Source: Spirochaetia bacterium
GTDB lineage: Bacteria > Spirochaetota > Spirochaetia > DSM-16054 > Sediminispirochaetaceae
Direction of reading: 5' to 3'
Length of the DNA stretch: 64,000 bases
NCBI GenBank assembly: GCA_034520965.1
Contig: JAXHMY010000002.1
Coordinates: forward strand, 352,001 to 416,000
Position numbers: made by a program. This document shows positions 33,001 to 39,000 of the stretch, piece by piece. The number at the start of each line of letters is the position of its first letter. Position 1 is the first letter of the stretch.

Positions 33001-36000
33001 CCATTCCAATGGAGTTTATCGGTTTTTTGCCCCACGACCCCGCAGTAAGCAGGTCTATTTTTACCCGGGTACCTTACATTCTTGATAAGCCAAACTCTCC
33101 ATTTGCCAAGGGGATGCGCCTGCTGACCCAGAAACTGACCGCAGGGACCTTTCCGAGCACTCCCCAGTTGTTCGAAGACGATGAGGACATTCAGGAACTG
33201 CAGCAGGAGCTGCAGCAGGATTTGTAAAGTAAGCAAAATGAGGAACCATGAGTGAGACTTTAAAAGAGTATATTAAGGGTATGTTTTTCGAAAACGCTTA
33301 ACCCTGGGATATGCATTTAGATTGAAATCCGAATGTTCTCCGCGTTTCAAATAGTGATACCCGATTCCGGCAATCATAGCACCATTATCCGTACACAAGC
33401 CCATTGAGGGAAAAATAGCTTCAACCCCCTCCATCGCCTCCAAGCGGCTGCGCAGAAGCGAGTTGGCCGCAACTCCGCCACCGGCTACAATGCGGGTCAG
33501 GCCGGTATCTTTTACCGCCCGTTTTACCCTGCGCACCAGCATATCGATTGCAGCCCGTTGAAAAGAAGCGGCGATATTTTCAGGAGATTTCTCAGCTGCC
33601 CCGTCCCAAAACTGATCAAGCTGGTTGATAACGGCGGTCTTTAAGCCGGAATAAGAAACATCATACCGGTGGGTGCCCTTGTGCAGTGAGGGGTCGGGGA
33701 ATGCAAAGGCCTGCGGATTGGCCACCTTGCTTTGTGCAAGCTTGTCGATGGCCACCCCTCCGGGATATCCGAGCTGATAGTGCTTGGCAACCTTGTCAAA
33801 AGCCTCTCCACAGGCATCGTCGATGGTTGCTCCCATTACTTTAATGGTATCAAAATCTTCAACCTTTGAGATGACTGTATGACCTCCGGAGACCAAAAGC
33901 CCCATATAGGGATACTCAATATCGTACTCCAGATGTGGTGCGTACAGATGCGCCCGGATATGATCGATCCCAACGAAGGGAATATTCCGTGCCAGAGCCA
34001 GACCTTTTGCAAAGTTGAGGCCAATCAGAAGTGAGCCGACTAAACCGGGACGGTTAGTCACTGCAATACCATCGATCTTATCCAAACCTACACTGGCGTT
34101 TTTTAAGGACTGGCCGGCAACCGACAGTATCCATTCGGTGTGCATTCTGGAAGCGATCTCCGGAACCACCCCGTCGAAGGGGCGGTGAATATCTATTTGA
34201 GATGCTATTTCATTGCTTAAAATTCGGCGTCCGTCTTCAACTACAGCGATTGCGCACTCATCACAGGAGCTTTCAATTCCCATTACCAGCATGTACATGC
34301 TCCTCTGCAAAAAATGATGAAAGGTGGACAAACTCGTACCCACGATCCTCTATCTTTCCATACCACAAAGAGAGGGTAGAGGCAAGCTCCCGGCTCCATA
34401 CATGTCCGATCATAACCGCATAGCCCTGGCTGCGAGCAACTTCCAGGGCACTGCTAAGGGCCAGTTCAATCTCTAACGGATCTTCAATATTATCCAGAAA
34501 CACATTCCGCTCTGAAAAGGGCAAGCCCAGTTTCTCCGCTACCCTATTCCCTACCGTGTCAGCGGTAGTGCGGCTGTCGAGAAAATAGAGCTGCCGCCCC
34601 TTCAATACCGAAAAGAGGGCTTCCATCAGTTCAGGATTGGCGGTTCCTTTAGAACCCATATGGTTATTCACTCCAATCACCCGGGGCAGCTGGTCAAGGT
34701 TCTTATTCACAATTTTCCGCATTTCCTCCGGCTGCATTCCCACGTACAGTGCACCAGGGCCCGGGTCTTCATCGCCTATAGGTTCAATCGGCTGGTGGAG
34801 AATCATCTCCTCTCCGGAACGTGCAATTTGTTCCTGAGCCGCCCGGCTAAACTCAAGTCCCGGCAGAAGTGCAAAGGTCATAGGTATCGGCAAATCGAGA
34901 TAGTTGTCTAGCTGCTCCAAACTGTAACCCACATCATCAATTACCAGATACAGTTTGCCCCCTTTGGCGGGGGGTGCAGGAATGTGTTCAAGTGGATGCA
35001 GGAGCAACCTCTCTTCCTCGGAGATAGATTCCTCACCGGTCTCTTCGGGGTAATCGGTATCAGTATCAGTAGACTCGGGCTCATCCAGGATTGGAGGAAC
35101 CGTTAGGGGATCAGATTCTACTTGCTGACTTTCCTCCCCTTCTATAGCCCCTTCTGTAGTTTCTTCTGTAGCCCTCTCGGTGTCCTTATCCAACGCAAGG
35201 TTCTGGGAATCCGGTCTCGGGAGCATCACCAGCAGAATAAACAGGGAAACTGTAATCAAAGTGAGCAGGGCATAGGCAAGCTGCACCCGTCGCCGCTGGG
35301 AGGGTGCCTTTTTCTTTTTTTTGGAGGTTCTATTTGCAGATGCTGCTGAATTTTCAGTTGAATCCGACTCAGAGGCTGTGTTTTTATTTTGTTGGTTATT
35401 CGAAGCGTTTTTCATATTGCCTGTCTATCGGTATCGGGCCATCCACCGGAAGGGGGGACATTGCCCGATTACCTGCAGACGGCCTTATTCGTAAATATAT
35501 TCTCTCATTTCATCGGCATGTAGACGCAATTTCTTGATTGCCTTCATTTCAATCTGCCGAACTGTTTCCGGAGAGATGCCCATCTCCTCGCCAATGCGCT
35601 TTAAGGTAACCTTCTTGCCCCCATAGAAAGAAAAACGGTACAGCAGTACTTGTCGCTCTTTCTCACGCAGATGATCAAGAAACTTCACCGTATCCTCTTG
35701 TGCACACTTTTTCAACAGCTCATCATCGGGTTGGTAGGTAGTATCTTCAAACATGTCTCCAAGTCGGGAGTCAGTCTGTTCATCCTCCCAATCCAGTGAC
35801 ACAACCGGGTTTGATGAATAAAGTACTGCAGAGACTTCAGACTCTTTGACGTGCAGGGCTGCAGCAATTTCGTGCATTTCCGGCTTCCGCCCAAAGTCTT
35901 GACTATAAGAGTAATAAAAACGCTGAACTTTACGCAGCAGCTCCTCTTTTCGGTGGGGCAGTTTTATGTGGCGCTGATTTTTTGCAAGAGCCCGGACGAT

Positions 36001-39000
36001 CGATTGCCTTATCCACCACGCGGCGTAAGTTGAGAAGCGGACATTTTTTCGATAATCGAATTTTTCGGCAGCTTTCATCAGTCCGATATTCCCTTCTTGA
36101 ATTAAATCGAGAAAGCTGAGCCCGGGAGACATATAGGAACGGGCGATCTTAACCACTAATCGAAGATTCGACTCTGTAAGAAGGCGCAAAGCGTATTCAT
36201 CGCCCTTTTGGATTTTTTTTGACAATTCAATTTCTTCGGCAAAAGTGAGGAGCGGCTGTTTCTTGATACCGGAAAAGTAATTCTGTAAAGCGTCCTTTTG
36301 GACATCTACTGTTTTATTGCTCATTTCATACCCTCCGTCATAATAATGCAACAACCATGCCAAATTATTAAAAGTTGGGTAAAATTTAGTATTTCTTTTG
36401 TTTGTATATAGTTAGCGCCTATGTACTGATAAACAGAAACAAGGATAGCCATAATAGTATACTTTTTTATACATTAATAGCTATTTGTATAGTCCAGTTA
36501 TCCATGCATAATAATTAATTAAGCCTTGACAGCTGCTTATAGAGCATATCATCAAGTCCAATATCCCCATTCTTGGATATTGACTGAGCGTACTCATCAT
36601 AGAGCATATCCTCAAAAATCTCTTCTGCCTGACCACCCTCCAGAAGACCGCTCTTATTTACTGTCTTCCGCATGGAATCAAGCATTTGCTTTATGAAAAT
36701 AGCTTGAAAATCGGAACAGGTTTCTTTTAATCTGTCGTTTTTGGCAGTATTTTCAGTATTTGCATCGGAGCTCCCGGCTGCTCTGCCGCTGCGCGCTTTC
36801 GCCTGGAGGGAGTTGCTCTGCCGACGTATCCCGGCCTGTTGCTGCTGCAGCCGGCCCAGCTGCATCATATTACTTGAATCAATTTCCATGTGTCTCTCCC
36901 CCCGGCTTAAACATTACAGAATTGCTTTCTACATAACCTCTAAAGTGCCGTACAGCGCTCCGGCACGCTGAATGGTTTTTAACACTTCAATTATATCATC
37001 GACCTTCATCCCCGCCTCCTTGAGAACTGATACCAATTCTTCAACCTTCACCGTTTCATCAAACTGCACACTGGACTGGGCGGCGGACTCGCCGGTTCTA
37101 TTCCACCCCACAGATATTTCGGATGAATTGAAAGAGACTACCACTGGGGCTATTCGTACCGATTTTCCCATTACAACCACCCCTGAATGACGATTTATTA
37201 CCACGCGGGCAGGGTAATCAGGGTTTACAGTAAGCTGTTCTATCGCAGCGCTTAATTCAGTAGAACTTATTTCATTGTCTGCAGAGGGAATTACCTCAAT
37301 TTTCTCGGCATCAACCGCTCGCACAGCAAAATCCTCATACTGGCTCCGGATAGCGTCCCGAACCGCAATTGCCAAGGAAAAATCTGGGGAATTGAGCAGC
37401 ACCGCGACTCCATTTTCAGTTTCAAAGTCGGAGACCACCGGCTGTTCAATAATCGCACCGGCGACAATACCGCCGGTGGTACGCTTATCGGATCTCTGCT
37501 GATCCTGGGTTGCATAACTGCTATTAACCACACCCTGAGCTACCGCATACACTTCGCCGTCTGCAGCCGAGAGGTTTGTCTGCAGCAGTACACCCCCGGC
37601 TATATTTCGGGCGTCCATTAAACTAGAGACAGTCACATCTACAGTTTGACCGGTTCGAATAAAAGGAGGAACCGTCGCCGTCACTACCACCGCTGCGCTG
37701 TTTTTACTATCGATATCCTCAGCGGCGATATTCACATCGAAGGCGGACAAGAAATTCGAGACCAGCTTTTTATTCACTTGGGAGCGACTGCTGTCCCCCT
37801 CTCCCCGTAAACCGGTTACTAGGCCGAAACCAACCAACTGGTTTGAACGAACCCCTTCTATTGCGGCAATATCGCGAATTTTAACTGAGGCCGGTTGGGC
37901 TACAAGAAGATTTCCATGGGGGAGCAATAAGAAAAGCAGAGAAAAAAGCATTCCCAACCCAACTGCTCTGTGTCTAATCAGTGAAATTATCATTTTACTC
38001 AAAAACCACCTCTCCTGCCTGCACTACCCGGCACTCTTTAATCACACCTGTGTCAAATTTAACCGCCACCGACTCATTGCGGCCGGCCTCGCCCCTCGCA
38101 TTCCCTGCTATTCGAAGCTGCACGGCCCCCCTCTGCATCATCACGCTTACCCTATCTCCCGGAACCACCAAGGGTTTAATCCGGGCATTGCGTATATGCA
38201 GAGGTTCTCCGGCAAAAATCTCAGTACGAGCCTCAAAATCACCCCCATGGGTGGAAGTAAGCGCCTCAGGGTACGCGCCCAGCCTCATAGGGCGTTTCTG
38301 TACATCATCAACTGTAATAACTTCACCTTCTATTATCCGTCGCTGAGCTGTCAGATAGGGGGTAAAGCGTTCGATTGTAACCGTGACCACCCCCTGCATA
38401 GAGCCTTTTTTGACCAGAAAACGAGCCGAGGATTTTCCCTGCCCCATGTCGCGAATAGTTAGCAGCTCACTGGTAAGTTCAAGGGATTTACTATCGCCTA
38501 TACTTCCACCTGTGACGCCCGTTGTAAGAGCCTGGAGGGATGCCGGCACATAAGGAATATCTATTTCGATACGCTCTTCTGGGGATTCATATTTCTTTGC
38601 AACCTGCTGCAGTACCTGGGTAAACATTTCTATCATAGCGGGCGATTCGATTCGAGAGGGAATATACACAGCCCGACGGCCAACTAAGGACACGGCACTT
38701 TCATCAAGCCCCTGGGGATGTTCAGTTTGCAGCACCCCGCTTATTTGCCAAAGAGGCAGCACTACAGGGCTTTCACCGAATACAGTACTACTATTGGAGC
38801 TAAGGGAGAACTGCGTATTATCACTTACAACCTCAATAAAGACATCGCTCATTGAAACATTTTCGCCCGCAGGTATGATATGGGGCCTGACATACAGTTC
38901 ACTCAGGTCGGCGGCGGCCGTTCCGGTAAAGTATAAGAGCACAACAGTTATGCACACTATAATACGCCCGCCACCTTTATCCACTTATTACCTCTTTAAG

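Follow-up and report, generated by a model that had tools for sequence, protein, structure and literature searches.

The two genes for short group-2 sigma factors in this spirochaete, g01580 (arm A) and g01757 (arm B), are probably two inherited sigma-54-driven arms, each with an enhancer and an activator of its own, which appear to have become cross-wired in Borrelia. The window, that is, the whole stretch of 64,000 nucleotides that was analysed (contig JAXHMY010000002.1, assembly GCA_034520965.1, positions 352,001 to 416,000), holds the arm A locus (Table 1); positions preceded by C1 or C2 count along whole contigs. This explanation is built on a comparison of boxes, palindromes, orthology, gene order and co-occurrence, from which we infer promoter use, the pairing of activators with enhancers, the order of losses and the regulons.

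Table 1. Features of the arm A locus, in window coordinates.
Feature	Position	Strand	Basis or remark
tsaD-like gene, second 3' neighbour of g01580 as in Borrelia	33273..34343	-	name by sequence recognition
divergent polysaccharide deacetylase, 3' neighbour of g01580 as in Borrelia	34273..35415	-	PF04748
g01580, arm A group-2 sigma-70 factor, 279 aa	35485..36324	-	Pfam regions 1.2, 2, 3, 4; ATG at 36324, end at 35485
ribosome-binding site GGAGG of g01580, 8 nt 5' of ATG	36332..36336	-	sequence
predicted sigma-54 -24/-12 promoter of g01580, TGGCA-N6-TTGCA	36347..36362	-	sequence; 33/33 relatives; predicted start ~36336
A+T-rich spacer between UAS-A and box, putative looping region	36363..36455		role suggested by the general sigma-54 mechanism
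candidate enhancer UAS-A, 18-bp palindrome of TGTAT-N8-ATACA type	36456..36473		18.1 bits; centre 102 nt upstream of box
single-domain flgJ, 5' neighbour of g01580 as in Borrelia	36515..36889	-	NCBIfam FlgJ matches under cut-off
flgI	36929..38002	-	upstream of flgJ and g01580
flgA-like gene	37995..38984	-	
flgG and flgF/flhO	38988..40642	-	64% and 57% identity to equivalently placed genes of genome G105

Sigma-54 boxes in front of two sigma genes

The initial annotation had reported a -24/-12 box 37-38 nt before both sigma genes, and the boxes were found as described: TGGCATGGTTGTTGCA lies 38 nt before the ATG of g01580, and TGGCACGCTTCTTGCA (C2:522755, minus strand) 37 nt before g01757, a 293-aa ORF; we also obtained the same count of 32 genomic occurrences for its search pattern. 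The two boxes score 18.6 and 20.5 bits with our matrix. All 33 relatives of g01580 (loci L004-L036) carry the box, 27 in strict form and 6 with a single deviation, while none of 11 non-spirochaete control loci does. The conservation among orthologues that had been claimed also held phylum-wide, in a test where L004-L036 served for matrix training only and the threshold was 12 bits: a box was recovered at 38 of 43 loci in arm A and at 52 of 82 in arm B, against 0 of 60 other sigma genes (18 other group-2, 35 RpoD and 7 non-spirochaete loci). Only 19 of the 1971 long ORFs of this genome score at least 12 bits at -200 to -10, a background that, set against 38/43 arm A loci, rules out chance as the origin of the boxes. 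The third group-2 sigma gene (C1:1038959-1037976) was considered as a further arm and set aside, the 18 boxless group-2 loci being of its kind.

Outside the class Spirochaetia, boxed loci occur in 29 of 37 families, which supports a predicted cascade present in most of the phylum's sampled families and not in that class only. Thirty of the 82 arm B loci, among them the deepest arm B sub-clade, have no box, and sigma-54 may therefore have taken control of that arm later; even so, sequence conservation makes it very probable that both arms were ancestrally under sigma-54 control. That the boxes serve as promoters is likewise suggested by comparison. In relatives about 90% alike, RNA contigs stop at 36330-36323, 6-13 nt 3' of the predicted start, a weak hint from runs that matched only 5-6% of words and from contigs that carry no strand, level or true start.

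As the initial annotation had noted, rpoN itself was not found in this 86%-complete assembly. The gene is present in 147 of 150 other genomes of the phylum and in all five relatives tested, and the ABC-ATPase gene that adjoins it in relatives likewise has no close match here, so that its absence is likely an assembly gap. With rpoN so widespread, a phylum-wide natural test of coupled box and rpoN loss is impractical. The relapsing-fever-type genus went against such coupling: in four of five genomes, picked and not random, rpoN is broken and the box intact, and in the fifth rpoN is intact and the box degenerate, hence the box does not strictly track RpoN.

Descent of the two sigma factors

The Borreliaceae sigma factor groups inside arm A with support of 100/99, as a long branch that has no firm place within that arm; family f5 was tied to B. 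burgdorferi through a published primer. AU tests reject trees in which it is forced together with arm B (p-AU 0.0018) or with E. coli RpoS (p-AU 0.0098). The order flgI-flgJ-sigma-deacetylase-tsaD is common to the g01580 locus and Borrelia rpoS, flgJ being the upstream neighbour of rpoS according to a figure legend (Fig. 1) of PMC1976401, and five upstream and two downstream genes are shared with genome G105, where the gene at the place of flgJ is 48% identical. By tree and gene order, g01580 is thus the counterpart of Borrelia RpoS (BB0771), its identity to the copy in L456, used for the Borrelia RpoS comparison, being 39%; the AU test and gene order rule out g01757. The initial annotation had read sequence as favouring g01580, which the tree upholds, and gene order as favouring g01757, which must be reversed since it is g01580 that occupies the rpoS position. 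In the two small genomes where it had seen one box and a 277-aa sigma ORF, both genomes carry the box, the second reading ...GCG, and the ORF has 267 aa.

Arm B is a separate lineage from arm A, closest to Bacteroidota SigA, to which it is sister with support of 99/96 (three Bacteroidota rows in the tree); a tree joining arms A and B without Bacteroidota SigA gave p-AU 0.07 and was not rejected. In Bacteroidota, SigA is the housekeeping factor and its promoters carry a -33/-7 motif. In this genome the Bacteroidota-type TAnnTTTG occurs 130 times against 109 expected, like its controls, and the two-part motif 15 times against 5, with no clear enrichment. The short SigA proteins (~287 aa; WP_005641668.1, WP_324679733.1) share the motifs FISYAVWWIRQ and RLPLN with arm B, whose best match in the plasmid collection is a Bacteroidota SigA (48%); with g01757 as the query, a protein search recovered nothing but close relatives from spirochaetes. 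Unlike SigA, the arm B protein accompanies a full RpoD as an additional factor and is predicted to be sigma-54-controlled.

Both arms have the group-2 architecture, with regions 1.2, 2, 3 and 4 and without region 1.1, and differ from each other in regions 3.0 and 4.2. E. coli RpoS is likewise a short group-2 sigma-70 protein with regions 1.2-4; however, it falls outside both arms in the tree, and scores of 230 and 272 bits with its profiles (TIGR02394, NF004207) stay under the curated cut-off of 378.7, which speaks against proteobacterial RpoS identity. The equivalent of K173 is absent (E in arm A, N in arm B) and nlpD does not adjoin.

Candidate enhancers and activators

Each box is preceded by a conserved palindrome. 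A 17-bp model of the arm A palindrome failed (4/72) and an 18-bp model worked; the site at g01580, UAS-A, is the top-scoring one of the genome. When the matrix was trained on other loci, 20 of 38 test loci had a UAS-A, against 0.2 in shuffles. The candidate enhancer of arm B, UAS-B, is a 17-bp palindrome, TGTGTCA-N3-TGACACA (C2:522849-522865), recovered by cross-validation in 37 of 52 boxed arm B loci and missed in the other 15; shuffles gave 0.4 and the 72 arm A loci ~0.5. Of 12 regions with the murG..hk2-rrp2 operon or hk2 that were scanned, three also carry a UAS-B. A palindrome ~100 nt upstream, an A+T-rich spacer and a GG-N10-GC box are also the layout of classical enhancer-dependent promoters (NtrC, NifA type), although here the output is another sigma factor and the palindromes read TGT-N12-ACA and TGT-N11-ACA.

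Neither palindrome was found at the 27 boxed loci of Borreliaceae. One-mismatch matches resembling UAS-B number 11 and 15 in that family, against 4 and 1 in controls. One intergenic UAS-B-like site of 20 bits is common to 9 of 17 genomes of that Borreliaceae genus; it contains an extended -10-like string, may be a plain sigma-70 promoter, and is given as a lead only.

This genome encodes eight sigma-54 activators, against one in G105, together with FliA and ECF sigma factors. Its Hk2 and Rrp2 are orthologous to the Borrelia pair (34% and 54% identity), with the GAFTGA loop present, and in 11 of 82 loci, spread over four families outside the class, rrp2 is the gene immediately upstream of the arm B sigma gene; on this co-occurrence, Rrp2 quite probably pairs with UAS-B. 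The candidate for arm A is a GAF-AAA+-HTH protein encoded after rpsA (C2:172574-174067) with the recognition helix QRTYL. Activators with a (Q/E)RTY(L/V) helix occur in 24 of 25 genomes with a UAS-A of at least 10 bits and in 1 of 17 without, where kin are not independent and the matrices were partly trained on the same loci. The helix is mostly on the GAF-domain activator next to rpsA, and in 3 of the 24 positive genomes it reads ERTYL and belongs to an activator of receiver type. G033 is the one genome where UAS-A is present and no activator of this kind was found. Arm A is missing from G049 and G110, and there the activator gene has lost its GAF domain, leaving only a decayed AAA+ part. In L022 the activator gene adjoining arm A codes for another kind of two-component protein and was discounted as a local feature. 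Pairing of the GAF activator with UAS-A, again suggested by co-occurrence, is only somewhat favoured.

The Hpk2-Rrp2 pair of Treponema denticola (TDE1970/TDE1969) is the same kinase-activator pair. Parts of PMC12070737 describe it as unstudied and as a predicted sigma-54 activator, and name no target; we predict the arm B sigma gene and its own operon.

Proposed cross-wiring in Borrelia and its alternatives

Taking these observations together, spirochaetes would inherit two sigma-54-dependent genes for short group-2 sigma factors. In arm A, an activator on UAS-A, for which the GAF protein is the best candidate, would open the sigma-54 complex so that g01580 is transcribed from the box behind flgJ; in arm B, Hk2-Rrp2 acting through UAS-B would drive g01757 likewise, and each sigma factor would then redirect RNA polymerase to its own regulon. 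Borrelia burgdorferi, with its Hk2-Rrp2-RpoN-RpoS cascade (BB0764, BB0763, BB0771), likewise has a -24/-12 promoter in the interval from flgJ to the sigma gene, according to parts of PMC1976401, PMC6719511 and PMC12472547. It has one sigma gene, orthologous to g01580 and not to g01757, whereas two are found here with an upstream palindrome at each, and one activator against eight in this genome. Here, Rrp2 is linked to arm B. Borrelia would have lost the arm B sigma, the arm A activator and both enhancers, in an order we can only suggest, and would retain the arm A sigma and the arm B activator, so that Rrp2 as sole activator would act at the arm A promoter with no site to bind. This would explain the enhancer-independent activation of rpoS by Rrp2 published for Borrelia (PMC1976401); in the present species, the conserved palindromes at both arms argue against such a mode. 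The ancient two-arm cascade proposed in the initial annotation keeps its footing in conservation, tree and gene order, except that Hk2/Rrp2 goes with arm B, the arm lost in Borrelia, and the pathway there looks like cross-wiring rather than one intact arm.

It is unlikely that Rrp2 alone drives both promoters, as in Borrelia, in which case UAS-A would bend the DNA or serve some other regulator and the co-occurrence of the GAF activator would be incidental. Rrp2 is present in every genome whose activators were listed and needs no enhancer at Borrelia rpoS, UAS-A is missing from 17 of 42 boxed arm A loci, and families f16 and f28 have the QRTY protein although no arm A was found in them; however, the two palindromes are unlike in both length and sequence, with hardly any cross-matching (at 13 bits, UAS-A is in 0 of 52 arm B loci), UAS-A stands at enhancer distance, and the activator decays where arm A is lost. 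That the promoters arose by repeated gain or spread by gene transfer, and are widespread without being ancestral, seems highly improbable: vertical descent predicts that the subtrees of RpoD, arm A and arm B should repeat one another's family groupings, which they do, the deepest arm A branch is boxed and the same palindromes recur in distant families, against which stand the patchy arm B boxes, an arm B copy outside the class (G043) 75% identical to g01757, and paralogues in several families.

Hardly probable at all is a minor or repressive role of sigma-54 at the boxes, with the genes read mainly from sigma-70 promoters or through the flagellar operon. The box-to-start-codon spacing is constant at 36-41 nt in most loci, enhancer-like palindromes lie upstream, the box persists where flgJ no longer adjoins the arm A sigma, and the RNA contigs stop just below it; arm A does lie behind flgI-flgJ in the same orientation, PMC1976401 draws upstream promoters for Borrelia, and boxes are kept in genomes with broken rpoN.

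Returning to two arms cross-wired in Borrelia, we tentatively offer a joint reading that falls somewhat short of probable. The last common ancestor of most spirochaetes may have had a sigma-54 hub with two or perhaps three downstream sigma or sigma-like factors, every one of them served by an activator and enhancer of its own, and the virulence switch of Borrelia may be a chimera of arm A sigma and arm B activator. TGTGTCA-N3-TGACACA may be the Rrp2 site that has yet to be found; Borrelia Rrp2 may still be able to use the few such sites that remain, with possible relevance to the essential role it plays independently of RpoN. In the treponemes of syphilis and periodontal disease, the arm B sigma gene may be a direct target of RpoN.

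In the literature searched we found no statement that the cascade is conserved outside Borrelia; small-genome predictions (Studholme and Buck) or Sarkar et al. 2010 may list single treponemal sites. A pan-bacterial matrix scan (PMC12316311) links COG0568 generally, and COG0533 in Spirochaetia, to sigma-54. A 2025 review still describes the cascade as exclusive to B. burgdorferi, and doubts about where BB0771 came from have been published (PMC12472547, PMC6719511). By sequence comparison, the sigma-54-to-RpoS virulence switch of Borrelia looks like what is left, in reduced form, of an ancient circuit of spirochaetes. If so, BB0771 would gain a pedigree inside the spirochaetes, and the lack of need for an enhancer by Rrp2 at rpoS would be explained. 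There would be a concrete DNA site to test for Rrp2 and a named target for T. denticola Rrp2, and study of the switch would move to harmless free-living species; for one of these, an RNA polymerase system has already been reconstituted (10.64898/2026.02.09.704077).

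Two sigma-factor genes with predicted sigma-54 promoters

The initial annotation had placed a sigma-54 (-24/-12) box 37-38 nt before the start codon of both short sigma-70-family genes of this genome, g01580 (arm A) and g01757 (arm B). Both boxes were re-found, and the strict pattern TGG[CT]A[CT]N5T[TC]GC[AT] was again counted 32 times genome-wide. Regions 1.2, 2, 3 and 4 are all present in the two proteins, which score under the cut-offs of the RpoD and proteobacterial RpoS models. The genome also encodes RpoD, FliA, four ECF-type factors, eight sigma-54 activators and an unboxed third group-2 sigma. 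As stated earlier, rpoN itself has no match in the 86%-complete assembly; it is present in 147 of 150 other genomes sampled from the phylum and in 5/5 relatives tested. Since the ATPase gene adjoining rpoN in those relatives yields matches of only ~30% here, the rpoN block probably falls in the missing 14%. Frame splits in obg (window 24737-25790), argS (window 26792-28562) and a NifA-like activator gene (C1:456655-458107) are probably assembly indels. At C7:174885-179209, four clustered sigma-54 boxes lie beside an RtcR-like activator gene and precede uncharacterised genes.

Features of the two sigma-factor arms in the source genome
Feature	Coordinates	Strand	Remarks
g01580, 279-aa sigma-70-family gene	window 36324-35485	-	TGGCATGGTTGTTGCA begins 38 nt upstream of ATG
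g01757, 293-aa sigma gene	C2:522718-521837	-	TGGCACGCTTCTTGCA 37 nt upstream of start
UAS-A, candidate enhancer	window 36456-36473		top-scoring site of its kind in the genome, centre 102 nt upstream of box
UAS-B, candidate enhancer	C2:522849-522865		top-scoring site of its kind in the genome, centre 102 nt upstream of box
Hsp20 gene	C3:163142-162687 (L314:1688-2143)	-	sigma-54 box and UAS-B site 140 nt upstream

A search with g01580 returned 80 loci, and the best 33 (L004-L036, 47-98% identity) all carry the box, 27 strictly and 6 with one change; it was found at 0/11 non-spirochaete controls checked among the remaining 47. A matrix trained on 34 genes of these 33 loci was then applied at 12 bits to sigma loci of the 150 genomes (21 of the same class, 129 labelled as the same phylum only), which were examined in part, with at least one genome per family. 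This threshold was reached before 38/43 arm A and 52/82 arm B genes and before none of 18 other group-2, 35 RpoD and 7 non-spirochaete genes, against a background of 19/1971 in the source genome. Within the class all 9 arm A and 19 arm B loci pass, in agreement with the claim that the boxes are kept across the Spirochaetia, and four additional arm A loci carry the box. Among 37 families outside the class, boxed arm A occurs in 22, boxed arm B in 20 and either in 29. The eight unboxed families include f15 (only one match in 20/21 genomes) and f20, where an arm B gene is present without a box; their size and number alone suggest that these are Leptospira- and Brachyspira-like. RpoS is reported absent from L. 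interrogans in the accessible text of PMC12655853. In the tree, arm B is unboxed in its deepest branch.

In the T. denticola-like genus g2 (L092, L268, L126, L128, L131, L132), most boxes, in either arm, have TAGCA in place of TGGCA, and RpoN scores low on its Pfam model, possibly a co-evolved shift of -24 specificity. At L022:9431-11319 the arm A gene is tandemly duplicated, with a box and UAS-A at each copy. A possible third arm is the gene of a 281-aa sigma-like protein that is specific to spirochaetes, bears an HTH at its C terminus and matches no Pfam family (L312:3457-4302; C3:359456-360301, +); a perfect box stands before it in 7 of the 10 loci found, its own included.

Candidate enhancers and activators of each arm

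Each arm has its own upstream palindrome. UAS-B, the 17-bp TGTGTCA-N3-TGACACA, was cross-validated in 37/52 boxed arm B loci (0.4 in shuffles, about 0.5/72 for arm A). For UAS-A, the 18-bp TGTAT-N8-ATACA, training on L004-L036 gave a matrix that found the site in 20 of 38 other loci at 11 bits (shuffles 0.2; arm B 7/52) and in 17 of them at 13 bits (arm B 0/52). The Hsp20 gene, with both box and UAS-B, is a likely second Rrp2 target.

The Hk2/Rrp2-like pair claimed to lie beside one arm is indeed there, with rrp2 5 kb upstream of arm B. The end of rrp2 lies directly upstream of arm B in 11/82 arm B loci, in four families outside the class, most loci having been examined with only 1.5-3 kb of flank. 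In 3 of 12 regions scanned (G015, G120, G062), UAS-B is found where the murG..hk2-rrp2 operon begins or at hk2 itself, an arrangement expected under self-regulation. For arm A, the activators listed in ten genomes yielded as candidate a GAF-AAA+-HTH gene after rpsA, with a helix reading QRTYL. UAS-A scores at least 10 bits in 25/42 boxed arm A loci; a (Q/E)RTY(L/V) activator occurs in 24 of these 25 genomes (21 with QRTY; some short, without GAF) and in 1 of the 17 without UAS-A, counts drawn from kin genomes that are not independent. Two treponeme-like genomes without arm A still have the gene in its place, but it has no GAF and its AAA+ part is decayed (29-35% identity). Against the pairing of activators with palindromes count families f16 and f28, where the activator is present without arm A, genome G033, where UAS-A is present and no such activator was found, and, for arm B, a genome inferred to be syphilis-agent-like (G088), where the box is present and UAS-B is not.

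Origin of the Borrelia sigma factor

Two small genomes share the gene order flgF, flgG, a 212-aa gene, flgI, flgJ, box, a 267-aa sigma, deacetylase, tsaD, murG, holB, hk2, rrp2; the window reads flgF, flgG, flgA, flgI, flgJ, box, g01580, deacetylase, tsaD, and in both apt, rplU and obg border the sigma block. The family of these genomes is Borreliaceae, because one locus, with a box at -78, contains the sequence of an rpoS primer published for B. burgdorferi. All 37 genomes of this family have the sigma; across 30 loci the box fits the pattern in 27, is a one-off variant in 2 and is degenerate in 1. The initial annotation had sequence favouring g01580 and gene order g01757 as the Borrelia RpoS orthologue. 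The first half stands; the second falls, as it is g01580 that has the Borrelia neighbours flgI-flgJ and deacetylase-tsaD. The initial annotation also gave g01580 as the best match of the small genomes' sigma, whose length is 267 aa rather than 277 aa.

In an IQ-TREE tree of 91 rows, a subset of 207, the Borreliaceae sigma falls inside arm A (100/99). Holding it with arm B was rejected in a 48-row subset (p-AU 0.0018), as was holding it with E. coli RpoS (p-AU 0.0098). Region 3.0 contains (H/Y)RKE in both arm A and Borrelia but LNRAN in arm B; region 4.2 contains S(P/S)ETVRQ in the former two and TKERIRQ in arm B. One Borreliaceae copy (L456) has 39% identity with g01580 and 33% with g01757. 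Arm B groups with three Bacteroidota SigA proteins (99/96), and arm A joins both at 90/89, with E. coli RpoS outside; joining the two arms without Bacteroidota is not rejected (p-AU 0.07). This placement agrees with a view cited in the accessible text of PMC6719511, that BB0771 arose separately from proteobacterial RpoS. The subtrees of RpoD and of the two arms repeat family groupings such as f14+f27, f9+f23+f31(+f37), f22+f35+f42 and f19+f34, a pattern consistent with descent accompanied by losses.

Among 27 boxed Borreliaceae loci none has either palindrome, in line with the portion available of PMC1976401, where neither an enhancer nor binding by Rrp2 could be found in Borrelia. UAS-B-like intergenic palindromes do occur in this family (L405:3192, L406:3114, L407:2837), in the gap separating a divergent gene pair that follows ligA and ahead of grpE-dnaK; since -10-like strings overlap them, they may be sigma-70 promoters instead.

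Window positions 40816-44624, next to the flagellar genes, hold an integrated element: a tRNA-Thr, then a tyrosine integrase of 452 aa and small ORFs of unknown function. A REP-like palindromic repeat of ~46 bp with the core TTGGAAGTC..GACTTCCAA lies at ~5396-5436 and 31184-31230 and has dozens of genome copies.

Promoter use and the proposed circuit

Contigs from relatives ~85-90% alike cover g01580 in RNA runs from three studies. Several end with adapter attached at window 36330 or 36323 (runs X1 and X2, one study) and one ends at 36328 (run X4). With the start predicted near 36336, these positions lie 6-13 nt downstream of it, and few contigs cross the box. These ends, in contigs that carry no strand or level, hint weakly at a transcription start below the box. 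In four of five relapsing-fever-type genomes tested (L463-L469, L435), rpoN is broken and the box is consensus; in the fifth, G156, rpoN is intact and the box degenerate. Recent decay is the simplest reading of a broken rpoN with an intact box, and rpoN has been noted as missing from B. turicatae (PMC3162934, in the text accessible). These genomes, like the unboxed deepest branch of arm B, speak against a tight coupling, and consensus boxes beside broken rpoN show that the presence of a box alone is no proof of its use.

Boxes, palindromes, orthology, gene order and co-occurrence are established at the level of sequence. By the general sigma-54 mechanism, an activator would bind the palindrome and loop across the A+T-rich spacer to open the promoter, and the newly made sigma would redirect polymerase. 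Hk2, a PAS kinase that senses oxygen in T. denticola according to the part available of PMC12070737, would probably read the arm B signal; the boxed Hsp20 gene with its UAS-B suggests a stress role. Arm A might respond to a GAF ligand and, at a guess, serve envelope or cell-shape programmes, since g01580 is placed between flagellar rod and cell-wall genes. Whereas the source genome has both palindromes and eight activators, Borrelia has neither palindrome and, in G105, Rrp2 as sole activator; there, the arm A sigma would have come under the arm B activator following loss of both enhancers.

Sigma-54 control of rpoS in Borrelia was known before, and the accessible text of a 2025 review calls it unique (PMC12472547). 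The literature searched, without older prediction papers, yielded no report that it is conserved in other spirochaetes; the available part of an S. africana preprint does not mention RpoN. As far as its accessible text goes, PMC12316311 predicts sigma-54 links for COG0568 generally and, within Spirochaetia, for COG0533; these promoters may already be listed in its web database. The observation of two boxed sigma arms is real, and its main value is that it makes testable both what Rrp2 recognises and how the Borrelia switch arose.
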